A stretch of DNA of 64,000 bases from a virus: IMG/VR virus record IMGVR_UViG_3300026488_000012, positions 115,976 to 179,975 of that record; one strand, 5' to 3'. Position 1 is the stretch's first letter. Each line of letters starts with the position of its first letter. Position numbers and translations under genes: made by a program. This document shows positions 2,851 through 64,000 of the stretch, piece after piece. The notes under the pieces are model-generated. The model saw only the letters and a list, made by a program, of their open reading frames with translations, was not told where the DNA came from and did not search any database.

Positions 2851-3384
2851 TTTATTTTAATTTATACGTTAACCCTATATGGGAAAACAATGAATACGAC
2901 TGAAATATCAGTCGTACATAAAGATAGGAGACTGGTAAATGAGTATTATCAAGAGTTAAAAAACCTGTCTGATGACCAGAAATTCTGGTTGAGTGAGGTG
3001 TACAAGACCTGTCTAGAGTATGATCTAGGTTATACTTGCGTAGCGATAGCTTGGGAAGAATCCAAGTTTAATAAATGGGGAGATAACGAAGCAGGTGACT
3101 ACGGTTTAATGGGTATAAACCTATACTGGTACATGATAGACAACGGACTTAATTATAGAAACAAATATAGGAGAATAGAAGTCCGCACTAGGTTAATAAG
3201 AGATAGTTACTATAACTTAAGGTACTCTATATCTAAGCTTATAAAATTAAGAAAGAAGCATAAGAACAACTGGTTTAAAATATGGGGTTGTTATAACGGA
3301 GGTACAACCCCTAACTATTACTATAGTAGAAGAATATTGAATAGAATTTATGCTTTTAGAAAATGGTTAAAGACAAATAACTAA
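2839..3384 (+). CDS. SLT-family lytic transglycosylase with N-terminal hydrophobic signal
   Basis: AIAWEES (catalytic Glu), GDYGLMGIN, YNGG motifs; ATG 2839 after AAGGAG. Confidence 0.8.
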   Translation: MRFLFILIYTLTLYGKTMNTTEISVVHKDRRLVNEYYQELKNLSDDQKFWLSEVYKTCLEYDLGYTCVAIAWEESKFNKWGDNEAGDYGLMGINLYWYMIDNGLNYRNKYRRIEVRTRLIRDSYYNLRYSISKLIKLRKKHKNNWFKIWGCYNGGTTPNYYYSRRILNRIYAFRKWLKTNN

Positions 3385-5009: not shown

Positions 5010-5879
5010 ATGTTGTTTAGTTATTCAGAGAAAGATATAGGAGACTATACTAAATGGTCTCCTATAAAAGAAATAAAAGAGCGTGTAGGTAATTTTATTT
5101 TTGCTATTGATAAAGATGGAGAGCTATACGGATATCTAACGAATGAAGATAACAAGACTTATAAAGCTGTAAATAGGGAAGGTTACTTTATAAAAGAGAC
5201 GATTGATTTAAGTTTTACATTTGTTATCTCTAATATAGAGGATGAGATTAATGATTTATTAGCTAATCCTAATGTTTTTATTAAGAGAATAAAGGATGAG
5301 TTATACGACAACAGAGATGAGATAAATAGTGGTGATGGTCATATTTTAAACGATAGTGTTATTGTAAAATTAAATACGGAATATCCACTGATAGATGACG
5401 ATGAAGATGAATTTAAAGAATCCACTCTGAGTAATACGTTAGCACAGTTAATAAAAGCAGGTCTTATTTTTTCTTTAGTCTTTACAAAGTCGTTAGGAGA
5501 TACGAGTAAACCTGTAATATATGATAAATTAAGTGTTGATAATAGAGAGATTATCCTTCCTCACTACGAATATAATTCTTCTGTTTTAATAGTTGATATA
5601 GATGAAACAGATAAAAATGTAATAGTACTTGGGAAAGGCTTAAATTTACATATTGACTCTAAAGTTGAAAAGCTACCAAAGGATTTATATTTCTTATTAC
5701 ATGTTTATCTAACTAAGTATGCTAATATTACAAAGGATAATCCTCTTAGTATTATCCTAACTAAAGAACTTATTAACGAATATGTATCTAACATATATAG
5801 TGTAGAACCATCGGAAGGATTATTAGTTAATGAAATGTCTAGAGTAGATATAGAGACTAACTTAGGTATAAGTATTTAA
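5010..5879 (+). CDS. hypothetical protein (289 aa)
   Basis: Long ORF with AAGGAG SD. Confidence 0.75.
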   Translation: MLFSYSEKDIGDYTKWSPIKEIKERVGNFIFAIDKDGELYGYLTNEDNKTYKAVNREGYFIKETIDLSFTFVISNIEDEINDLLANPNVFIKRIKDELYDNRDEINSGDGHILNDSVIVKLNTEYPLIDDDEDEFKESTLSNTLAQLIKAGLIFSLVFTKSLGDTSKPVIYDKLSVDNREIILPHYEYNSSVLIVDIDETDKNVIVLGKGLNLHIDSKVEKLPKDLYFLLHVYLTKYANITKDNPLSIILTKELINEYVSNIYSVEPSEGLLVNEMSRVDIETNLGISI

Positions 5880-5977: not shown

Positions 5978-6052
5978 TTTTTAATTTTAACTATATATAT
6001 TGTTATCTTACTAAAATGCAATAAAACTACAAGATTAGGAGGTAAATATGAG
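5978..6052 (+). repeat. 75-bp promoter+RBS cassette, copy 1 (copy 2 at 10157-10231)
   Basis: Identical sequence containing TATCTTACTAAAATGCAAT and TTAGGAGGTAAATATGAG. Confidence 0.92.
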
Positions 6053-8288
6053 TAATGAATTTTACAAAATTAAGGATATTATAAATAGATACGCAAAGTA
6101 TTTTAAAGATAACAACTCTGAGTTAAGACTGAGATATGAGTTATTTTCAATTCACGCGCTTAACCCGTTTGTTATATATAACTCTTCTCCAAGAGGATTG
6201 ATGATGGCGTCGCATGTATCACAGATACTTGTTATAGATAATCCTGAGAAAGACATAATACAGACGCCTACTATGAATGATCTTAGTAGATATGTTATAT
6301 CTAAGAAGTTTCTACATGATGCAGAGATAATTGATGTAATAAGTAGATATAGTAATCCATCCATAGGTAAAGAGGTAGAGTATGATATCATCTATAGAAG
6401 ACTAGATGACGGTAAGGTTGACGTAATGAAAATACCATTATTTAATAAATTTCACACCTATTTTGGATTCCTATACAAATTCCTATTAAATCATAGAGAG
6501 TTATACCCGGGAACAATAGTTAAAAAAGATACATACGTAGCAGTACCGCCTACTGTTATAGATGTTGATGACGAGGGCAATTTTGACTATGGGTTTGGTT
6601 TAAATGCTAACGTAGCAATGATAACTATACCGGAGACTGCAGAAGATGGTATAGTGATATCCGAATCATTCGCTAAGAAACTTAAATTTAAGACTATAGA
6701 GAAAAGAGTTTTATTCGTAGAACCTGATGAGGTATTACTTAATCTTTATGGAAATGATGAACATTATAAGCCTTTCCCTGAGATAGGAGAGGAAATAAAC
6801 CCAGACGGTGTTTTAATGGCAAAGAGAAAGATAGATGATGAGATAATAATAGGACTATTGTCTAAGGATGAGTTAAGAAGAGTTAATCCTATGTTCGACG
6901 AGGCTGTATATTGTAAAGGAAAAGTTATAGATATTAAAGTCTATAAAAATTATAAGAACAAGATGATACCTATGGAACCAGACGAGTTTATTAACAAATA
7001 TGTACAGGGTATGAGTGATTACCATAGAAGAATAGTTGATATATACAACGTTCTTAAAAGATCAGACCCTAACTTAGAAATGACTCCACTGTTTATAAAA
7101 TATGTATCGAACAGTATAGGTTATTTAGAATCAGAAGAGTATAGAAGAAAGAAAGTATATAGAAAGGAGGAGATAGAACTTTACAGAATAGAAATAGAAG
7201 TAGTTAGGGAAATAATACCTACTAAAGGATTTAAGTTGTCAGACTTCCACGGGGGTAAATCTGTGATAGTGGATGTATGGAAAGACGAAGATATGCCAGT
7301 AGATGAATTTGGAAATAGAGCTGATATCATAGCTGACCCGTCTGCTACCGTATCCAGACTTAACATAGGTAGGATGTACGAGAGGTACATAAAGGCTGCG
7401 TCCAGAGAAGCTAAGAGACAGCTTATAAATAAAATAAGAGAGTTACTTAATCTAACTGAAGTATCTTCTCAAGATGTCGATATATTATCAGACGAACAAG
7501 TAGTTAATTTATTTAAAGAATATGTAATAGAATTTGTAAATATGTTCGATACTGAACAAAAAGCTGCTTACAACCAAGTATTACAGGGTAATGATATTGT
7601 CTCTATGAGAGAGATAATTAAAGAGATAGTAGATGAGGAGTTCTATATCTATCTAACTCTGGATAATCCGAAAAGAGCTTATGAGATAGTGGTAGATATA
7701 GAGTTGTCTAAATTTAAACCTCCATATGGTAAGGTTAAGTTCAATTATTATGGTACTCCTGTGGAAACTAAAAATCCGGTAATGATAGCACCGATGTATT
7801 ACATACTTCTATCTAAAATAGCAGATGACTATCTCGTAACATCTTCTGCTAAGTTAAATCATTTCGGTACTCCTATTACTGTATCATCAGTGGATAAACA
7901 CAGGTTACCGCATAGGAATTCTCCTACAAGAGTATTAGGAGAGACTGAAACTAGACTATATGCGTCGTATTGTGGTAGAGAGTTTCTAGCCGAGTTAAGA
8001 AATAGAAATTCGTCTATAGAACAACACGCTACAGTCTATAGAAATATATTAAACGCAGATGAACCTACAGATATAGATGATGTTATACCGAGAGACGTTT
8101 ATCCGTATAAGAACGATAGACCTCTAACTATGTTAGAAGCATTATTTCATTCAGTAGGACTGGATTTGAAATATACGGAAGATATAGATTTACTTCACGA
8201 GCCACAGCAATTAAAGACTAATGAAAATCTCGGTGATGATATAGAAATATACGAGGAAGATAAATCATCTTCAGATAGAGAGGGTTAA
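6048..8288 (+). CDS. non-virion RNA polymerase beta subunit, C-terminal part (phiKZ gp71-73-like)
   Basis: NSSPRGLMMASH, GLNANVA, AEDGIVISES, KLSDFHGGKSV, DIIADP..SRLNIG, RVLGETE: DPBB beta motifs. Confidence 0.92.
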   Translation: MSNEFYKIKDIINRYAKYFKDNNSELRLRYELFSIHALNPFVIYNSSPRGLMMASHVSQILVIDNPEKDIIQTPTMNDLSRYVISKKFLHDAEIIDVISRYSNPSIGKEVEYDIIYRRLDDGKVDVMKIPLFNKFHTYFGFLYKFLLNHRELYPGTIVKKDTYVAVPPTVIDVDDEGNFDYGFGLNANVAMITIPETAEDGIVISESFAKKLKFKTIEKRVLFVEPDEVLLNLYGNDEHYKPFPEIGEEINPDGVLMAKRKIDDEIIIGLLSKDELRRVNPMFDEAVYCKGKVIDIKVYKNYKNKMIPMEPDEFINKYVQGMSDYHRRIVDIYNVLKRSDPNLEMTPLFIKYVSNSIGYLESEEYRRKKVYRKEEIELYRIEIEVVREIIPTKGFKLSDFHGGKSVIVDVWKDEDMPVDEFGNRADIIADPSATVSRLNIGRMYERYIKAASREAKRQLINKIRELLNLTEVSSQDVDILSDEQVVNLFKEYVIEFVNMFDTEQKAAYNQVLQGNDIVSMREIIKEIVDEEFYIYLTLDNPKRAYEIVVDIELSKFKPPYGKVKFNYYGTPVETKNPVMIAPMYYILLSKIADDYLVTSSAKLNHFGTPITVSSVDKHRLPHRNSPTRVLGETETRLYASYCGREFLAELRNRNSSIEQHATVYRNILNADEPTDIDDVIPRDVYPYKNDRPLTMLEALFHSVGLDLKYTEDIDLLHEPQQLKTNENLGDDIEIYEEDKSSSDREG

Positions 8289-8297
8289 ATCCCTCTC
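8278..8297 (+). terminator. intrinsic terminator overlapping the stop codon
   Basis: GAGAGGG-ttaaat-CCCTCTC followed by a T-rich tract. Confidence 0.7.
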
Positions 8298-8416
8298 TTG
8301 TTATTTCAAATTTTTTCATTTATGTATTACTAAACTGTAACAAAACAAAAAACCTCTCTACCAAGTACTGCTCCTCTGGTGTGAAGGAGAAGGTCGAGAC
8401 TAACCCCGGTGGTATA
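8293..8416 (+). repeat. 124-bp direct repeat, copy 1 (copy 2 at 63875-63998)
   Basis: Identical from CTCTCTTGTTATTTC to GGTGGTATA: terminator arm + early promoter + 5' half of the leader RNA. Confidence 0.93.
8323..8341 (+). promoter_or_regulatory. early promoter
   Basis: TGTATTACTAAACTGTAAC, contains the TATTAC core. Confidence 0.7.
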
Positions 8417-8471
8417 AGGGGAGTCAGAAGACCTTCTCGACGAAGAGGAGACGTGGAACGGTAGAGAGGTT
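8351..8471 (+). ncRNA. structured 5'-leader RNA, variant A (unrecognised family; loop-E and K-turn-like motifs)
   Basis: Nested stems 8351-62/8460-71 (12 bp), 8371-77/8444-50, 8387-95/8430-38, 8398-401/8422-25, 8404-07/8418-21; covaries with the copy at 26687. Confidence 0.8.
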
Positions 8472-8485
8472 AAAAGGAGTAGATA

Positions 8486-8992
8486 ATGAAAAAAATTAAA
8501 GTGGAGTACGATTATAAAGAAATTTCTTCCCCTGATATTGACGTTATAAAGGAGATAAGAATTGGCGAGAAAGTAGTCTCGCCAATAGCAGTAAAAGGAG
8601 TAGAATCCATTAGTCCCAACAGATTATTTAGCAATGTAACTAGTGCAAGAGCAATAGTTCTTGCTTATCTTTTTGAGGATGAGATAAATAATTTGTTGCC
8701 TTACCCTATGATGATTTTCGATAATAGAGGAACAAATGTGGTCGCTACGGAAAGAGAGGAAGATGAATTTCTCTCTTATGATTATGTAGATATGACAGGG
8801 GTTAATTGTGGAAGAAGTCAACCGACTTATAAGATATTTGAGTTAACCGGGGACCTAATGACCGATGTTTATCACATCATTAACCCTCCGGTGAGGATAG
8901 ATTATATCTATCCTAAGTTTAGAGCGGATATTCTTTATTTAGGGAATCAGGCGTTCGCTCTACTTGATGTAGAATTTATAAAACCATATTAA
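8486..8992 (+). CDS. early hypothetical protein behind leader RNA A
   Basis: AAAAGGAG SD directly after the RNA stem; terminator 8994-9011. Confidence 0.8.
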   Translation: MKKIKVEYDYKEISSPDIDVIKEIRIGEKVVSPIAVKGVESISPNRLFSNVTSARAIVLAYLFEDEINNLLPYPMMIFDNRGTNVVATEREEDEFLSYDYVDMTGVNCGRSQPTYKIFELTGDLMTDVYHIINPPVRIDYIYPKFRADILYLGNQAFALLDVEFIKPY

Positions 8993-8993
8993 T

Positions 8994-9011
8994 GGGAGTT
9001 TATAAACTCCC
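8994..9011 (+). terminator. perfect 18-bp palindrome terminator
   Basis: GGGAGTTTA/TAAACTCCC then a T-rich tract. Confidence 0.7.
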
Positions 9012-9083
9012 TTTAATTTCTTCTTTTTTTTTTATTTTAAACATATATATATATATGTATGTATTTCGAACTGATTTCGTGTA

Positions 9084-9102
9084 TATACTATTAAAACGCA
9101 AT
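9084..9102 (+). promoter_or_regulatory. early promoter variant
   Basis: TATACTATTAAAACGCAAT followed by A-tract and AAGGAG. Confidence 0.5.
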
Positions 9103-9127
9103 AAAACAAAAAAAAAAGGAGTTAAAA

Positions 9128-10132
9128 ATGGTACTTAATCAAAATTTAGCTGATCAAAATTCAGTAAGTAGAGTAAAAAGATGTACAGTTTGTGGAGCAG
9201 TATACGGTCGCTCCATAGGAACGCTGGAAAGATGTGATATCTGTGGCGGTATACTCATAGACGCGACACAAGATGCTTTTCTACAACAAAGAATGAATCA
9301 AGGATTCGCGCCATCATATTCGTATATTCCAAATACGCCTAATCATATACCTGGACATATGAATATGTCCAGTAATTCTAATTTATATACACCTCATGTA
9401 GGTAATAAAACATTCTTGAAGGACCTATATGAAAACGGTCTCATCGATACCTATGTGAAAGTCACTTATAGTTTTCAAGAGGCGTACGAGGATAAAAATT
9501 GGATTTTACACTACGGTTATGGTACAGGTATGTATGGTCTAAAAAATGAAATCACACAAGTAGAACAAGGTGATGTTGGTAGAGATTCATTAACGCTAGG
9601 AACGTTGTTTAATGACACAGTAACTTTGTTAAAAGAAGTGGTACTTGATGAGGATAGTAAAGGAACACTGGATATAGATGCCAGTGTTACGTATATTCGT
9701 GGAGACAATAATATAGACAGTATATTACAGGTGATTGAATTAGATAACGACGGCGAAAAAGCATTGACCGCAAGTTTAATAAGTGAGGAAAGCAAATGCA
9801 TAGACGGCGTTTATAAAAAAGCTATGCTTCTCACCGTTTATTATTTAAATAGAGAATTAATATTAAGTAATGAAGTCTCTATTACTATCGAAGACGTTGA
9901 GTTGGAAGATGGTAATAGAGTACTTTATATAAGTTCTGATAACTCAAAAACTGTAAGAAGAGTTAACTTTAGAGAAAACACAAACAGTATTTATATCTAC
10001 GATAACATTAATCTTCTACCAGAAGAGATTAAATATGTTTACAGTTTAAGGTTAGTAGATAGTGAATCTTACAAAATCGCAGTTGACAGTTTAAAATTAA
10101 AAGTAAACTACAGAGTAAGAAAGACTACATAG
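9128..10132 (+). CDS. N-terminal zinc-ribbon (CxxC..CxxC) protein with Q/N/P-rich linker
   Basis: KRCTVCG...ERCDICGG at the N-terminus. Confidence 0.7.
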   Translation: MVLNQNLADQNSVSRVKRCTVCGAVYGRSIGTLERCDICGGILIDATQDAFLQQRMNQGFAPSYSYIPNTPNHIPGHMNMSSNSNLYTPHVGNKTFLKDLYENGLIDTYVKVTYSFQEAYEDKNWILHYGYGTGMYGLKNEITQVEQGDVGRDSLTLGTLFNDTVTLLKEVVLDEDSKGTLDIDASVTYIRGDNNIDSILQVIELDNDGEKALTASLISEESKCIDGVYKKAMLLTVYYLNRELILSNEVSITIEDVELEDGNRVLYISSDNSKTVRRVNFRENTNSIYIYDNINLLPEEIKYVYSLRLVDSESYKIAVDSLKLKVNYRVRKTT

Positions 10133-10156: not shown

Positions 10157-10231
10157 TTTTTAATTTTAACTATATATATTGTTATCTTACTAAAATGCAA
10201 TAAAACTACAAGATTAGGAGGTAAATATGAG
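10157..10231 (+). repeat. 75-bp promoter+RBS cassette, copy 2
   Basis: Identical to 5978-6052. Confidence 0.92.
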
Positions 10232-12266
10232 AATAGGCGTTAGAACACTTTATAGATTACCATTAAAAGACATAGTTGAGTTAAGAACTAATTTAACATT
10301 AGTATTCGAAGACGGTATAGAGATACAAGCTACGTATAAAGAGGTTATAATATTTAGAGCATTAACAGATTTTCTTACCAAATGGGAAGTACCCATTACG
10401 TCAGATATGTGGTTAAGTAACTTCTATACGAAAGGTTACTTCAGTAAGGATACTTACTTAGAAATGTATTCTCTTATGTATCAGAGAATCGTTAAACTAA
10501 TTCTTGAACCGCAAGGAAGATATGGAGAACATTCCGAGGTATTAAAAGACATATTCAAATCTGTTAATATTTTCGTAAATGAGATTGTATCTAAGATACA
10601 GGATTATAATATAGGTATAGAGATTATAGATATTTTACCTATAGCGTTAGACGAGGAACAGCTGTTATCTATTATGGAAGTAGAGAAAAATCCTACACAA
10701 GAATCTATCGAACACACGTATCAAGTGTTAGATAAAGTTATACATAAACCTGAGAATAGTGGAAAAGTTATGAGACTCGTTTATGATTCAGGTATGGTTA
10801 ATCTCAATCAGCTAAGACAGCTATTCGGTAGTAGGGGATTCTTAACAGAGATAAATTCACAGATATTTAAGAAACCTATGATAAATAGCTTTACATTAGG
10901 TTTTAGGGATATGTATGAAGCTATTATAGAGTCAAGAGCGGGTGCGAAAGCTCTTAACTTATCTACAAAAGCTATTCAGAAATCTGAGAAGACAGCAAGA
11001 GAATTTCAGTTAGCTACTATGCCTGTCGAAGAAATAGTTTACGGTGACTGCGGTAACAGAGACTATATGGAGATAACTGTAAGACCTAAAGAAATAGATG
11101 AAGATGGTAATGTAGTACACCAAGGAGACCTTAAAAACCTGTTAGGTTCTAAGTTTTTAAACGATAAAGGAGAATGGGAAACAATTACTCCTGAACATAA
11201 ATATTTAGAAGGACAGACTATTAAGTTAAGGTCAGTATTACACTGTAAATTAAGAAACAAGAAGCAAATATGTACTGCGTGTTATGGAGACCTCGCTTAT
11301 GGTATGTTTTTACATCAAAATGTGGGACATATAAATACTACAAACATAACAAGGGATATTTCACAGTCACTACTATCTACTAAACACTTATTAAAGTCAG
11401 CATCATCCGCTCCACTTAATCCACATCCATCTGTATTTGAGTTCTTTAACCTTAAGGATGAGAAGCTATTTATAAAACCTGAGTATATAGCTAAAAAGAA
11501 CAAAAACAAAATTTATATACTTGTACCACAATCACAGGCTAGAGGGTTAAGAGGAATAAATGATATCAATATCCTTAACGTCAATATTAACAAGATATCA
11601 AGAATAACTAACATCGCAATAGTGATAGAAGATCCAGAAGGTAATAAAGAAATACATCCGGTGTCTATACTATCGGATAGAAGATATGGATTTTTCACAT
11701 TCGATTTTATCAGATATATAAGAAAGAACGGTTATTTTGTAATGGCAGAGTTTCCTGATTTTTATGCTATCGATATCTCAAACATCGATAGGAAGCTACC
11801 TATTATAAAATATGAGAGAGCAGAGTTTGACTTTAATATCTTAAGCGATGAGTTTAGTAAGCTTATAGCGGATAAGAAATACGTTATAGTAGGAGGTAAA
11901 CGTAAATCTGAATATACTCCTGAAGTATTAGTTCAGAAACTATTTGACTTACTTAACAAGAAGCTATCTATAAATATTAAAAAGATAGAAGCTATGGTTT
12001 ACGGATTTACTGCTTATAACTTAGACCAAGATAACTTCGATTTAGGAAGAAACTCCGAATATATGGATGTTATCGGATTGAAGTATGCTATAGATTATAG
12101 GTCTATAGGGGGAAGTTATGACTGGAGTAGATTCACTACTAAAATATATTCTCCGTATATGTTCTTCCCTAGAAATAAACCTGATCATCCATTAGACGTA
12201 TTATTCAAACCTAACGAAGTATTAAATTACTATAAAAACGCATACCCATTAATAAAGGATAAGTGA
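10227..12266 (+). CDS. non-virion RNA polymerase beta' subunit, C-terminal part (phiKZ gp74-like)
   Basis: QLFGSRG, ESRAGAKAL, DCGN, LRSVLHCK..ICTACYG zinc site, QSLLSTKH; synteny with beta and SF2 helicase. Confidence 0.88.
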   Translation: MRIGVRTLYRLPLKDIVELRTNLTLVFEDGIEIQATYKEVIIFRALTDFLTKWEVPITSDMWLSNFYTKGYFSKDTYLEMYSLMYQRIVKLILEPQGRYGEHSEVLKDIFKSVNIFVNEIVSKIQDYNIGIEIIDILPIALDEEQLLSIMEVEKNPTQESIEHTYQVLDKVIHKPENSGKVMRLVYDSGMVNLNQLRQLFGSRGFLTEINSQIFKKPMINSFTLGFRDMYEAIIESRAGAKALNLSTKAIQKSEKTAREFQLATMPVEEIVYGDCGNRDYMEITVRPKEIDEDGNVVHQGDLKNLLGSKFLNDKGEWETITPEHKYLEGQTIKLRSVLHCKLRNKKQICTACYGDLAYGMFLHQNVGHINTTNITRDISQSLLSTKHLLKSASSAPLNPHPSVFEFFNLKDEKLFIKPEYIAKKNKNKIYILVPQSQARGLRGINDINILNVNINKISRITNIAIVIEDPEGNKEIHPVSILSDRRYGFFTFDFIRYIRKNGYFVMAEFPDFYAIDISNIDRKLPIIKYERAEFDFNILSDEFSKLIADKKYVIVGGKRKSEYTPEVLVQKLFDLLNKKLSINIKKIEAMVYGFTAYNLDQDNFDLGRNSEYMDVIGLKYAIDYRSIGGSYDWSRFTTKIYSPYMFFPRNKPDHPLDVLFKPNEVLNYYKNAYPLIKDK

Positions 12267-26656: not shown

Positions 26657-26675
26657 TATATTACTAAGATACGTG
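26657..26675 (+). promoter_or_regulatory. early promoter
   Basis: TATATTACTAAGATACGTG with exact TATTAC core after hairpin 26609-26634 and a T-tract. Confidence 0.7.
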
Positions 26676-26686
26676 ATTAAAAAAAA

Positions 26687-26819
26687 ACCCGTAAGTCCTT
26701 TTTGAAAGAGTACTGCTCTCCTGGAGAAGGAGGAGACTACGACTTATCCCGTTGTTCTGTGGGAAGTCAGAAAGTCTCCTCGACGAAGGAGAGATGTGGA
26801 AAATCAAGAAGGCAGGGGT
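26687..26819 (+). ncRNA. structured 5'-leader RNA, variant B
   Basis: Stems 26716-22/26787-93, 26730-38/26773-81, 26741-44/26765-68, 26747-50/26761-64 plus basal stems; loops conserved relative to variant A. Confidence 0.8.
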
Positions 26820-26833
26820 AAAAGGAGCCAAAA

Positions 26834-29020
26834 ATGGCTAAATTAATAGTGAAAAGAGATAGAATTGTATTTAAAAAAGAAACTATCTTAGAAAATAGAT
26901 CTTTGACAATTAAAGGTCTAAAAAGATTTCTCAACAAGAGAAATCTTAAAATAAAAGAAAAAGATTTAAGCGCAGCATATGCTGCGTATACTGGAGAAAA
27001 TTCTCCAGTTAAAGTTCCTGTTATAACAGGGAAAAGAAGAAAAGGAGTTGTTTCTAGGGAAGAAAGAATCCCTAGAAACACTCCTGTTAAAAGTCTAAGG
27101 GGGGATATCCTCCCTAAAAAAGTCTCTTTAAAAGAGAGACTTAAAGCGGCTGTGAAAAAAGCAAAAGAAGACGGTCATAGATTCGCAGCCGTTAGAACCG
27201 CATACGGTCTTATCGAAGTTCGTAGAAGAACGAGCTTTGATGAGACCTATGAAGTTTTTATGGAGGTCTTTAAAGAAAAAAGGGCTGAAATACTAGCGTA
27301 TGAAAAAGCGCTAAGTGAGGACTTGTCCCATCCTCACTTAGCGAAACATTATATTAAAGAGTTTGGGGACAAAATTATCCCATACTTTAAGCTGGTTGAT
27401 ACAATGGCTTTATCCTACGGTATGAATCCAAGGAACGTGTGGGATTCATGCGGAGTATGGGGAATATCTCCTGACCTATTCCTATTCAAGATTGGTGACA
27501 AAGAACATCTTCACAACATAAAAGTTGTGAAGATGTTCGTGGAGATAGCCCTAGAAACTTTAAGAGTTAGGGGGAGGGTGGATCGTATTCCAAGTATATT
27601 CCACCCATCAGTATTTTTCGAACAAAGAGAAAGAATGAAAGAATACAAAGAAAAAATTGATTCTAATATAGTCTATCCAGGGATCGAAGAGTATGAAATA
27701 TTTATCTCGATCTTCTGGAGACTATATAAAAAATACGGAGTAGACGGAATTCCGTCACTACGCATTACCCAGTTAATGAACTGGGATGAAACCTGGGATG
27801 AATTACTGGGTTGGAAAGACGAGGATCTATTACCTCTAACGCTAATGTTAATAGATTCGGACTTCTACTCCATCGATAAAGTTAAAACCGGTGAGGGTAG
27901 AAGAGGCGGCTATTATAAGATAAATTTCAGAAAACTAAATAACTGGAAGAAACTTAGCAAGAGGGAAAAAGCTAAGTTTCTTCCAGCGCCATTAGCTTGG
28001 AGACTCCTATTCAATAGGAAAGCTCCAGATGGAATCGAATTTCGTGATCCTAATCCTGTTAACTTCACGAGAGCTTCTCAAAGGGCTTTTCGTGAGTTAG
28101 CAGAAATCATCAAACGCGACGACAGGGGATATTTTGCTGCTAACATTAAAGCAGCGTATCACCTTAGTCTCGCGTTTGGTGATATGAATACAGTGAAAAG
28201 ATGGCTAAACGCACTAGGATTGAAAGTGGATGCGCTAGGCATTCACGACGCGTTCGTAAACGCCCACCATTTCTTAAAGCTTAAATATAAAGAAAAATGG
28301 GCGGCGCTCCTAATCAAATTCCCTGGGCTCAGAAAAGTTACATGGGCTTTTAGGGAGTTTGAGAGGGAGTTTGGACGCGTAGCAACTAAAACTGAAATCA
28401 GTAGCTATGCCGCGACTAAAAAATATAGGAATGTAAAATTAAAAGATGTCGCGGAGATAGCTGCTGAGTTAAAATTATCTCAGAGGGAATTTGAGGATTA
28501 TCAAAACTTTTTCCTCAAAACCCCTGAGAAAAAATCTACTATGTTACCAAATGTGGTTGTCGAGAAAGGTGAATATAAATTTAGAAAACTCGATGACCAC
28601 GATAAAATAGGCCCGTTCTTAGGGTTGTTGACAGACTGTTGTCAACACCTCCATAACGCAGGTGACACATGTGCTAAGGCGGGATGGAGGGACCCTGAGA
28701 GCGGGTTCTATGTCGTCGAGAAAGACGGCAAAATAGTTGCACAATCTTGGGCGTGGAGAGGTAAAAAAGGCGAGCTTTGCTTTGACTCTATAGAAGGGCT
28801 CGGTAATGTTAATGTTAATATAATTGCCGAGCTATATAAAGAAGCAGCTCGTCAGTTAGTCGGCAAAATGGGGATCACTCGCGTGACTGTGGGTGATACC
28901 TCATATGGCTTAACTGAGGATGTAAAACAAATCCTCGGTGGAGTCAACCGCGAGTCAGCGGTCATGATCAAAAAGGTGTCTTATACAGACGCTGATGATC
29001 AGTGGCTCTTAGCCGACTAA
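26834..29020 (+). CDS. large basic protein with C-terminal PcfJ-like/GNAT-fold domain; elevated GC
   Basis: K/R-rich N-terminus; C-terminal LGLLTDCCQH..AG.TC..GFYVVE..GKIVAQSWAW..LCFDSIE. Confidence 0.6.
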   Translation: MAKLIVKRDRIVFKKETILENRSLTIKGLKRFLNKRNLKIKEKDLSAAYAAYTGENSPVKVPVITGKRRKGVVSREERIPRNTPVKSLRGDILPKKVSLKERLKAAVKKAKEDGHRFAAVRTAYGLIEVRRRTSFDETYEVFMEVFKEKRAEILAYEKALSEDLSHPHLAKHYIKEFGDKIIPYFKLVDTMALSYGMNPRNVWDSCGVWGISPDLFLFKIGDKEHLHNIKVVKMFVEIALETLRVRGRVDRIPSIFHPSVFFEQRERMKEYKEKIDSNIVYPGIEEYEIFISIFWRLYKKYGVDGIPSLRITQLMNWDETWDELLGWKDEDLLPLTLMLIDSDFYSIDKVKTGEGRRGGYYKINFRKLNNWKKLSKREKAKFLPAPLAWRLLFNRKAPDGIEFRDPNPVNFTRASQRAFRELAEIIKRDDRGYFAANIKAAYHLSLAFGDMNTVKRWLNALGLKVDALGIHDAFVNAHHFLKLKYKEKWAALLIKFPGLRKVTWAFREFEREFGRVATKTEISSYAATKKYRNVKLKDVAEIAAELKLSQREFEDYQNFFLKTPEKKSTMLPNVVVEKGEYKFRKLDDHDKIGPFLGLLTDCCQHLHNAGDTCAKAGWRDPESGFYVVEKDGKIVAQSWAWRGKKGELCFDSIEGLGNVNVNIIAELYKEAARQLVGKMGITRVTVGDTSYGLTEDVKQILGGVNRESAVMIKKVSYTDADDQWLLAD

Positions 29021-29037
29021 CCTCTCCTTTTTTTTTT

Positions 29038-61998: not shown

Positions 61999-63075
61999 AT
62001 GGATAAAAGAAAATGTACACCAGGAGTATGTTTAGAAAAATGTTTGGAATGTAACAAAAAGGGACTAGGCTGTTGTGATACAGCTGTTCCTTTTAAAGAC
62101 GAGGAACTAGCAAAAGTTCATTTTGAAAATAGTCTTATAAGCGAAATGAGTGATGAGATACAGATAGTGAGAGGTGATGATAATTACTTATACGTGGTGA
62201 GTAAAGAAGATGTGACCGGTAGTAAAGTGGTTTTATCGGATAGACCTTGTGTTTTCTTCGACGGAGAAACATATAAATGTAAAATATATGATCACAGACC
62301 CGAAGCCTGTAGAAAGTATGGTGAAGTAAATAATCCTTGTATTTTTACAAATATAGACGTTGAGGATGTTAAAAACATTGAATTAGGAAAAGAAAAAATA
62401 AGAGACATCAAAATAGAAAGGATTCTATCTAAGCACAAGAATAGATTAGTGAGGTCATATTTGTCTCTCAAATTTCCTAAAATCAAGAAGTTTAGTAAAA
62501 AAGATTTGAAAAACATGAAAGAAGAGATGCTGTTATATCTTGTTATAAATGCTATTAATTTATTAGAGGACAAAGAACAAGGTAGTAGCGTTTGTCCAGA
62601 GTTGTTTGAATTTACATATAAATATCAATTAGTTATGATAAACAATACGCAGATATCTTCTATTAAATTAAAACAAATGAGTGCTAACCATGATGCTTTT
62701 AAAGGATTTGATAGAACCTATAATATCCTTAATAGGAAGTTCGTAATGAGAGACCCTATGTATCTCCAGATATTAGTAGGTAAACTCAAAAGAGTATTGA
62801 GCGGTGTAGAAGTATCAGAGATAAAAGAAATACCAAAAAATAGTGTTATAGGTAGAGTAGGTGAAGCTGTTGTTTTACTAGACTTATGGAAAACTAAGTA
62901 TAAGAACAAGTCCAATAGTTATAAGGGTATAATAAATGAGGACAATATATATAAACTAAAGAAATGGATTAATAAAGAGTTAGGAAGCGAGAGTTTAATA
63001 AATCCAGCAACAGGGTTTATTAAATTATACGAAAATGGTGAAAGAATTTACAAAGCTATATTAAAACAAAAATAA
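61999..63075 (+). CDS. YkgJ/UPF0153 (CxxCxxCC) Fe-S/zinc cluster protein with C-terminal extension
   Basis: CLECNKKGLGCCD...PCVFF..CKIYDHRPEACRKY. Confidence 0.8.
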   Translation: MDKRKCTPGVCLEKCLECNKKGLGCCDTAVPFKDEELAKVHFENSLISEMSDEIQIVRGDDNYLYVVSKEDVTGSKVVLSDRPCVFFDGETYKCKIYDHRPEACRKYGEVNNPCIFTNIDVEDVKNIELGKEKIRDIKIERILSKHKNRLVRSYLSLKFPKIKKFSKKDLKNMKEEMLLYLVINAINLLEDKEQGSSVCPELFEFTYKYQLVMINNTQISSIKLKQMSANHDAFKGFDRTYNILNRKFVMRDPMYLQILVGKLKRVLSGVEVSEIKEIPKNSVIGRVGEAVVLLDLWKTKYKNKSNSYKGIINEDNIYKLKKWINKELGSESLINPATGFIKLYENGERIYKAILKQK

Positions 63076-63882: not shown

Positions 63883-63998
63883 TTATTTCAAATTTTTTCA
63901 TTTATGTATTACTAAACTGTAACAAAACAAAAAACCTCTCTACCAAGTACTGCTCCTCTGGTGTGAAGGAGAAGGTCGAGACTAACCCCGGTGGTATA
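63875..63998 (+). repeat. 124-bp direct repeat, copy 2
   Basis: Identical to 8293-8416; continues past the window end. Confidence 0.93.
63905..63923 (+). promoter_or_regulatory. early promoter
   Basis: TGTATTACTAAACTGTAAC. Confidence 0.7.
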
Positions 63999-64000
63999 GG
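63933..64000 (+). ncRNA. structured 5'-leader RNA, variant A second copy (truncated by window edge)
   Basis: Identical to 8351-8416 except one fewer A in the apical loop. Confidence 0.75.

Follow-up and report, generated by a model that had tools for sequence, protein, structure and literature searches.

An uncultivated giant phage from hydrothermal-vent samples carries a family of structured leader RNAs, which stand between a phage-type promoter motif and the ribosome-binding site of genes that are unrelated to one another. The family is uncatalogued, and it is of a known general kind, the structured cis-acting phage leader. The element is about 120-145 nt long and folds into a long arm, in which the helices have been turned over by compensatory changes while the unpaired positions of the loops have stayed the same. 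We have very little doubt that this leader RNA is real and structured. As for its role, we tentatively favour an operator that acts in cis, is recognised by a factor, and governs, in a subset of probably early mRNAs, either translation or mRNA fate.

The phage genome and its copies of the element

The DNA analysed here (the window) is a stretch of 64,000 nt that corresponds to bases 115976-179975 of a 179,975-bp IMG/VR record. With a genome of ~180 kb and 30.5% GC, the source is a phiKZ-like jumbo phage, and it encodes split multisubunit RNA polymerase beta-type subunits at window 6048-8288 and 10227-12266. Its best protein identity to the sequenced phiKZ-like isolates is only ~30%, and a megablast of window 7000-10000 against sequenced phages gave no match. 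No tRNA genes were found in the phage genome.

The genome holds five copies of the element, a count reached alike by pattern matching, by DNA search and with R1, a covariance model derived from the paralogues. The first-pass annotation had counted three, a number that the genome-wide covariance-model search raises to five:

Genome 1-119, + strand: copy A'
Window 63905-64000, + strand: promoter and 5' half of copy A', broken by the contig end and continued at genome 1-119
Genome 3107-3236: copy C
Genome 62614-62746: copy D
Genome 124319-124450, + strand: copy A (covariance model 147 bits, E 2.5e-36)
Genome 142663-142793, + strand: copy B (covariance model 133.9 bits)

The end and the start of the contig overlap by 64 nt inside copy A' (window 63933-64000 and genome 1-119), with two bases trimmed. 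Copy A shares its 58 upstream nucleotides with the copy at the contig end, and the 127 nt that begin at element base 3 with the copy at the contig start. Copies A and A' are thus a 187-nt identical promoter-leader cassette (58 nt upstream, 2 nt, 127 nt), and the assembler broke at this cassette, which occurs twice. The overlap and the cassette shared with copy A together imply that the map is circular, and that the two contig ends hold parts of a single copy. The record is most likely a complete circular map of ~179.9 kb; IMG/VR classes it as “linear”, with a CheckV completeness estimate of 66%. Metagenomic relatives at 47% identity have terminal repeats and measure 185-186 kb, which, taken with the circular map, makes the genome probably complete. 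An independent ENA assembly of the same phage breaks just upstream of copy A and contains an identical copy A, and hence the sequence is not an assembly artefact.

Fold of the leader RNA

In copy A (window 8351-8471, + strand), the RNA forms a single long arm made up of helices P1-P5, three internal loops and a bulge. The minimum-free-energy fold has a dG of -59.7 kcal/mol and a z-score of -6.0 against dinucleotide shuffles, with 0 of 200 shuffles as stable. It recovers all of the helices and loops that the first-pass annotation had listed for a structured arm at 8351-8471, and the sequence and coordinates given there are also correct. That annotation had further described a diverged copy at window 26687-26819 (+ strand), and this copy B does take up the same fold from its diverged sequence (dG -53.3 kcal/mol, z -4.7). 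Both copies are GC-rich islands (~50% GC) within the AT-rich genome. The parts of the arm, in copy A, are as follows:

8351-8362 paired with 8460-8471, + strand: helix P1
8363-8370, + strand: 5' strand of the putative loop E, opposite 8451-8459, with AGUAC invariant in all copies
8451-8459, + strand: 3' strand of the putative loop E, with GGAA invariant in all copies
8371-8377 paired with 8444-8450, + strand: helix P2
8378-8386, + strand: 5' strand of the asymmetric K-turn-like loop, a bulge of 3-6 nt and then an invariant GAAG
8439-8443, + strand: 3' strand of the K-turn-like loop, GACGA (GACAA in copy E)
8387-8395 paired with 8430-8438, + strand: helix P3, 9 bp in every copy
8398-8407 paired with 8418-8425, + strand: helices P4 and P5
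8426-8429, + strand: invariant AGAA, in the distal half of the arm (8387-8438)
8408-8417, + strand: terminal loop of 10 nt with G.UG

Across the loop-E region, P1 and P2 join into a quasi-continuous stack of ~25 layers. In five of five versions of the element the transcribed (+) strand is more stable than its complement, by 2-11 kcal/mol.

Covariation and conservation

The earlier picture of covarying stems around constant loops is borne out by the double changes. Among the four paralogues, compensatory double changes are found in 15 of the 37 predicted pairs. Copy E, which comes from another phage (see below), brings the alignment to five full distinct sequences, four of them paralogues of one genome; in this structure-fitted alignment, whose figures overstate independence, standard pairs make up 94.9% of the pair cells (41-51% with slid partners), 18 of the 37 pairs show double changes (sliding leaves 1-5), and none of 500 shuffles scores as high as the real alignment. 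The pattern is clear-cut all the same. The changes include 7 of the 10 pairs in P1 and 7 of the 9 in P3. The unpaired positions are in contrast invariant: AGUAC facing GGAA, GAAG facing GAC(G/A)A, AGAA, and G.UG at the opening of the terminal loop. These loops are retained even in copy E, where the downstream protein is only 47% identical. Loops held constant among turned-over helices are better explained by a specific partner or a tertiary fold than by a passive hairpin.

Identity of the element

No Rfam 15 family matches any part of the window at gathering thresholds, and at permissive thresholds (E up to 10, and up to 1) none overlaps copies A, B, C, D or E. The family had been put down as unrecognised at first reading, and the scan for a known Rfam family leaves it so, with no match for any copy. 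Hairpin, hammerhead and other ribozymes were also considered, and there is no Rfam match to them and their core motifs fail to align.

The two loop modules look familiar. The first-pass annotation had seen a loop E in the basal internal loop, and at sequence level this reading is upheld: AGUAC faces GGAA invariantly in every full copy, and AGUA facing GAA between flanking Watson-Crick pairs, the signature of the loop-E/bulged-G motif, is present in full copies A-E. The middle loop had been read as K-turn-like. A kink-turn consists of a canonical helix, a 3-nt bulge, and tandem sheared G.A and A.G pairs. Copies B and C have this pattern, a bulge GGA followed by GA facing GA, so that these two copies fit a K-turn in sequence, with a 3-nt bulge and tandem G.A pairs. 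The fit does not extend in this form to copies A, D and E, where the bulge has 5-6 nt and where copy E has A for G at the second pair. The remaining non-canonical helix of the K-turn-like loop is irregular.

A pairing between the terminal loop and the 5' leader was considered and dropped. A 6-nt complement is found in copies C and E and in an unrelated leader (L180), and it is absent from A, B and D, as expected of chance.

Promoters, position and ribosome-binding site

Two classes of promoter recur in the genome. Class 1 is made of a T-rich tract, TATATTAC or a close variant of it, a TAA(A/G)NTGTAA start region, an A-rich leader and AAGGAG. Class 2 consists of TATCTTAC with TAAAATGCAA, and it heads the RNA polymerase genes among others. 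The element is found in 5 of the 11 class-1 units and in 0 of the 9 class-2 units, and it occupies the place where the remaining class-1 leaders have a plain A-run. All five genome copies lie between a TATATTAC-type promoter motif and the ribosome-binding site. With the two copies from other phages, seven copies (A, A', B, C, D, E and F) share one orientation and stand directly before the SD of the downstream gene; for E and F, the contigs end before any promoter would appear. The signals around copies A and B are these:

8277-8298, + strand: terminator-like hairpin with an 8-bp GC-rich stem and a T-rich tail, ending the upstream RNA polymerase beta unit
8323-8340, + strand: class-1 promoter motif of copy A, TGTATTAC and then the TAAACTGTAA start region, with a T-rich tract upstream
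26657-26673, + strand: class-1 promoter motif of copy B, an exact TATATTAC
8474-8479, + strand: SD (AAGGAG) of the gene behind copy A, predicted unpaired probability 0.94

The early promoters of phages with such polymerases are AT-rich motifs of ~10 nt centred near -10 (PMC7598289), and those of phiKZ also have a T-rich tract upstream (PMC8244752). The architecture of class 1 resembles that of the phiKZ early promoters (PMC8244752, PMC7598289), and by this analogy class 1 is probably the “early” promoter of the virion polymerase. The first-pass annotation had placed the element on early transcripts. Of this claim, the phage-type promoter upstream of the SD is confirmed, and the “early” timing is plausible by analogy with phiKZ promoters only. 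On the same analogy, transcription would start ~7 nt past the motif, and 7-15 unpaired A-rich bases would come before P1; phiKZ 5' UTRs are typically 31-40 nt (PMC8244752). A role in 5'-end protection, as had been suggested, fits poorly with an arm that probably begins ~7-15 nt after the transcription start.

At the other end of the arm, 0-7 nt separate P1 from the purine-rich ribosome-binding stretch and ~14 nt separate it from the start codon. The SD is predicted to be accessible in all copies (unpaired probability 0.60-0.99), which speaks against a constitutive anti-SD hairpin or switch. In all copies P1 is followed by A-rich sequence and the SD with no U-tract, and a terminator scan leaves the element unflagged; an attenuator of the intrinsic-terminator type was rejected for want of a U-tract after P1. 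Since the SD is accessible and no U-tract follows P1, any control would need a bound factor rather than a simple hairpin switch.

Two observations concern other leaders of this genome. A near-identical class-2 promoter-RBS cassette stands before three RNA polymerase subunit genes (window 6004-6060, window 10183-10240 and genome 113414), and two of these three genes share their first codons. At genome 70305-70418, another GC island (57% GC) follows directly on a TATATTAC motif and an A-run; it opens with an SD-like stretch and a short GC hairpin, and is unrelated to the element.

Copies and other leaders in related phages

Two further copies were found on other metagenome contigs, both at orthologous genes: E, which is full (L171), and F, which is partial (L187). 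A homologue of the 728-aa protein encoded behind copy B (47% identity) is carried by two 2.9-kb metagenome contigs, and its leader holds copy E (L171:55-200; 41.7 bits, E 7.6e-10; dG -55.3 kcal/mol, z -7.1). Copy E retains the basal and middle modules, and has an extra apical hairpin that makes its tip three-way. The first 34 bases of its contig (L171:1-34) are a Nextera adapter and not biological. Copy F belongs to a MYG1 orthologue that is 75% identical to the protein encoded behind copy D. Its contig starts inside this D-type copy, of which the last 28 nt and the SD are present, with GGAA retained.

Other leaders are found at more orthologues. In a MYG1 orthologue at 71% identity, the same place is taken by a GC-rich long-arm leader of another kind (L180:3140-3262; dG -50.4 kcal/mol, z -2.7). 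A similar promoter motif lies upstream of it, and its 11-nt bulge reads like the terminal loop of copy E. A group at 54% identity has a repeated, unstructured leader motif. In another related phage, a leader motif of ~60 nt recurs before two neighbouring genes (L181:4117-4180 and L181:4741-4800), and no significant structure is predicted for it (z -0.1 and +1.4). Within this clade, leaders seem to be exchanged as cassettes.

The family is narrowly distributed. Related jumbo phages had been named at first reading as a place to look for members, and the family was found in none of 30 such records: with covariance models R1 and R2 they gave no member, and the sole match is a false one, unstructured and in coding DNA. 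A loose DNA pattern run against IMG/VR gave chance matches only, among the matches listed, and three stricter IMG/VR patterns gave no true member passing the covariance model. One pattern scan of JGI metagenomes returned two chance matches, both rejected by the covariance model; two scans of cellular genomes returned 0 and 93 chance matches, none of which passes model R2. No copy was found in the flanks of the RNA polymerase beta relatives at 60-63% identity.

Downstream genes

The genes behind the element encode proteins of 138, 255, 282 (MYG1-like), 168 and 728 aa, which are unrelated to one another and mostly without family. Those behind copies A and B are:

8486-8992, + strand: ORF of 168 aa behind copy A, with its ATG at 8486
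26834-29020, + strand: ORF of 728 aa behind copy B

The 168-aa ORF (8486-8992) has no Pfam, PHROG or PADLOC match, and the gene behind copy D encodes a MYG1-type nuclease. As these genes are unrelated, the shared element would mark a regulatory set and not a pathway.

The 3' end of the 728-aa ORF is unusual in composition, with 433 nt at 59% GC (window 28595-29027). In the Atlas model, residues ~569-728 of this protein resemble GNAT acetyltransferases (TM 0.54-0.61 normalised to GNAT length, and 0.17-0.18 normalised to query length), and the segment could be a domain acquired from a GC-richer source. Terminator-like hairpins stand directly after the first gene of units A (window 8994-9011) and A' (genome 553). 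The genes that follow them have no recognisable promoter, which means either leaky termination or regulated read-through.

A model for the function of the element, and its alternatives

The reading that we favour, tentatively, is that of a factor-recognised operator. The transcript would fold into a rigid arm, which the loop E near the base and the K-turn-like loop in mid-arm would kink. In this kinked form, the distal half (P3, AGAA, P4/P5 and the G.UG loop) would be folded onto the basal half and directed at the ribosome-binding site. The two halves are of similar length (~25 stacked layers each), and geometry suggests that in a kinked arm the apex would come near the base and the ribosome-binding site. 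The invariant unpaired nucleotides could serve as the recognition surface for a trans-acting factor, the likeliest being a phage or host RNA-binding protein (a binder of K-turns or loop E, for example), or else the ribosome. Binding beside the free SD would set the translation and the lifetime of this subset of mRNAs, and an operator shared by several genes would place them under co-ordinate control. The strict apposition of the element to a free SD points to an effect on translation initiation or mRNA fate.

Some observations weigh against the operator. The MYG1 orthologue at 71% identity has a different structured leader, and so for that gene the element is dispensable or exchangeable. The bulge of 5-6 nt in copies A, D and E is atypical of a K-turn. 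The downstream genes, unrelated and mostly without family, reveal no common regulatory logic. Neither an L7Ae-family gene nor another K-turn binder was found in the phage. An alternative role as a nucleus-export signal was dropped, as no homologue of the phiKZ nuclear-shell protein is detected (weak negative evidence).

The element might instead be a processing or stabiliser site, where the duplex would be cut by host RNase III or by another nuclease specific for double strands or structure, the cut determining where the downstream mRNA begins and how efficiently it is translated. The early mRNA of T7 has such RNase III sites in several copies, one of them between the A promoters and gene 0.3. 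Like these, the element is conserved and multi-copy, and its long imperfect hairpin shortly precedes the ribosome-binding sites of transcripts that are probably early. The length of its quasi-continuous stack of ~25 layers would, as modelled, be compatible with an RNase III duplex of about two helical turns, and conserved internal loops have precedents among the phage sites. However, RNase III requires neither a loop-E/K-turn-like module nor a constant 9-bp P3, invariant loops among turned-over helices indicate specific recognition and not a generic duplex, and no RNase III gene was found in the phage. We consider a processing site unlikely.

A bolder reading, to which we give still less weight, is that the element is either a docking platform by which early mRNAs capture a cellular machine, or a put-like RNA that reprogrammes the phage multisubunit RNA polymerase in cis. 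In the first version it would be a module binding the tRNA elbow, a ribosomal protein or the ribosome, put together from parts of the rRNA/T-box type (loop E, K-turn and a T-loop-like apex). If this were true, these messages would enjoy privileged translation, or RNA-directed defence would be disarmed. If the second version were true, the element would be the first RNA to reprogramme a phage-encoded multisubunit RNA polymerase in cis.

The put-like version can also be taken by itself, as processive antitermination in which the nascent RNA binds the phage polymerase in cis and terminators within the unit are read through. The promoter is indeed followed directly by the element, whose several copies have a structure in common despite their different sequences, and units A and A' have a terminator-like hairpin after the first gene and then genes without a promoter motif. 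But the same layout occurs in class-1 units without the element (at genome 4509, for instance, with a strong terminator at 5170), units B and D are apparently single-gene, and every copy adjoins the SD, which antitermination does not require. There is moreover no known precedent for this with the non-canonical multisubunit polymerases of phages, and we find the mechanism decidedly improbable.

No better placed is a role in trans, either as a small RNA set free from the transcript or as a decoy or sponge: abundant early transcripts would present a surface like that of loop E, a K-turn or a T-loop, and titrate a host RNA-binding protein, a tRNA or an RNA-sensing defence protein. Several copies stand under promoters that are near-identical and predicted to be strong, their motifs resemble the protein- and tRNA-docking modules of rRNA and T-boxes, and four of the five terminal loops have a T-loop-like U-G-N-N-A pentad. 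Yet no terminator follows the element, and thus it has no obvious way of being released, and a decoy does not need the strict SD-adjacent position. The GAGA tetraloop that defines the sarcin-ricin loop is absent, as are a second T-loop in the T-box arrangement, a specifier and a T-box sequence.

The element could also be a palindromic repeat, selfish or neutral, akin to ERIC, Correia or MITE sequences. Such a repeat would have invaded A-rich leaders or travelled with promoter cassettes, and its leaving the SD free would make it tolerable. It is an imperfect palindrome of ~120 nt with A-runs on both flanks, at a place where the other class-1 leaders have only an A-run. Copies A and A' lie in the 187-nt identical cassette, assemblies break at the element, and one orthologous gene has a different leader. 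Against such an origin, 7 of 7 copies face the same way and stand in one place with respect to the SD, 18 of 37 pairs show compensatory changes around invariant unpaired loops, copy E keeps these loops before a protein that is only 47% identical, and the transcribed strand folds 2-11 kcal/mol better than its complement. All this makes a selfish repeat highly improbable.

Least probable of all is a riboswitch or thermosensor, whose fold, and with it the exposure of the ribosome-binding site, would respond to a small ligand or to temperature. A pocket could be made by the invariant internal loops, the position is SD-adjacent, and the stems, GC-rich in a vent-sample genome of 30% GC, would stay paired at high temperature. 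But there is no alternative SD-capturing fold (unpaired probability 0.60-0.99) and no terminator, the downstream genes are unrelated so that a common metabolite is not expected, and the apical domain tolerates an extra hairpin in copy E.

A leader module common to unrelated early genes and bearing invariant rRNA-like recognition loops would give a handle on how jumbo phages co-ordinate or protect their first messages. Studies of jumbo-phage transcription (PMC7598289, PMC8244752, PMC11512511) describe no conserved structured cis-acting leader RNA, 5' UTR-derived small RNAs aside. The element is a candidate for a new RNA-protein or RNA-ribosome interaction, and, being compact and very stable, could be put to use as an RNA scaffold. 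For the time being its reach is restricted, as the family is narrowly distributed and no host is in culture.

Comparison with known systems

Like the element, the T-box Stem I (RF00230) is a long arm in a 5' leader. Its AGUA/GAA S-turn, K-turn-type kink and G.UG-type distal loop have counterparts in the putative loop E, the K-turn-like loop and the terminal loop of the element, and the T-loop-like U-G-N-N-A pentads in four of the five terminal loops recall the same system. The order of the modules is however reversed, as the K-turn lies at the base of the T-box arm and the K-turn-like loop in mid-arm in the element. Unlike the T-box, the element lacks an AG bulge beside its distal loop, and neither an antiterminator nor a T-box sequence is present. 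A T-box riboswitch was rejected: the bases after GGAA are paired in P1 in all copies, so that there is no specifier codon; no antiterminator with a T-box bulge is found, P1 being only ~14 nt from the start codon; and RF00230 gives no match.

The P2 arm of the lysine riboswitch (RF00168) carries from base to tip a loop E (S-turn), a K-turn and a terminal loop, an order that the putative modules of the element would share. In the riboswitch, the kink of P2 returns the terminal loop for a tertiary contact. In the lysine riboswitch, however, five helices meet around a ligand pocket and an expression platform is present, whereas the element is a single arm, unbranched in copies A-D, with no platform. 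As the element has no five-helix junction and RF00168 gives no match, it was rejected as a lysine riboswitch.

With the sarcin-ricin loop of 23S/28S rRNA, the element shares an identical bulged-G core and the flanking C-G pair (AGUAC facing GGAA(C)). The sarcin-ricin loop is closed by a GAGA tetraloop, which is the target of ribotoxins and the contact for elongation factors, whereas ~90 nt of helices (P2-P5) take this place in the element. The first-pass suggestion of a sarcin-ricin mimic, in the sense relevant to ribotoxins or elongation factors, does not survive this difference.

RNase III sites are known in phage early mRNAs, among them R0.3-R1.3 of T7, those of SP82/SPO1 and that of the lambda N leader. 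They too are related imperfect hairpins in several copies with conserved internal loops, some of them immediately upstream of a ribosome-binding site. They are however only 40-70 nt long, with one internal loop, no loop-E/K-turn signature and no sequence likeness to the element.

The putL and putR RNAs of HK022, which lie just downstream of early promoters and promote the read-through of terminators in cis, are likewise cis-acting and structured, occur in more than one copy, and have their structure kept by covariation. Each put RNA is made of two short stem-loops that act on the host RNA polymerase, whereas the element forms a single long arm adjoining the SD, and its phage brings multisubunit polymerases of its own.

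Repeats of the ERIC and Correia type can alter mRNA stability or translation. Like the element, they are imperfect palindromes of ~120-130 nt in many copies, in transcribed intergenic DNA, and form RNA hairpins. These repeats are found in either orientation and at varied chromosomal positions, whereas the element keeps to one orientation and one position, with invariant loops and covarying stems.
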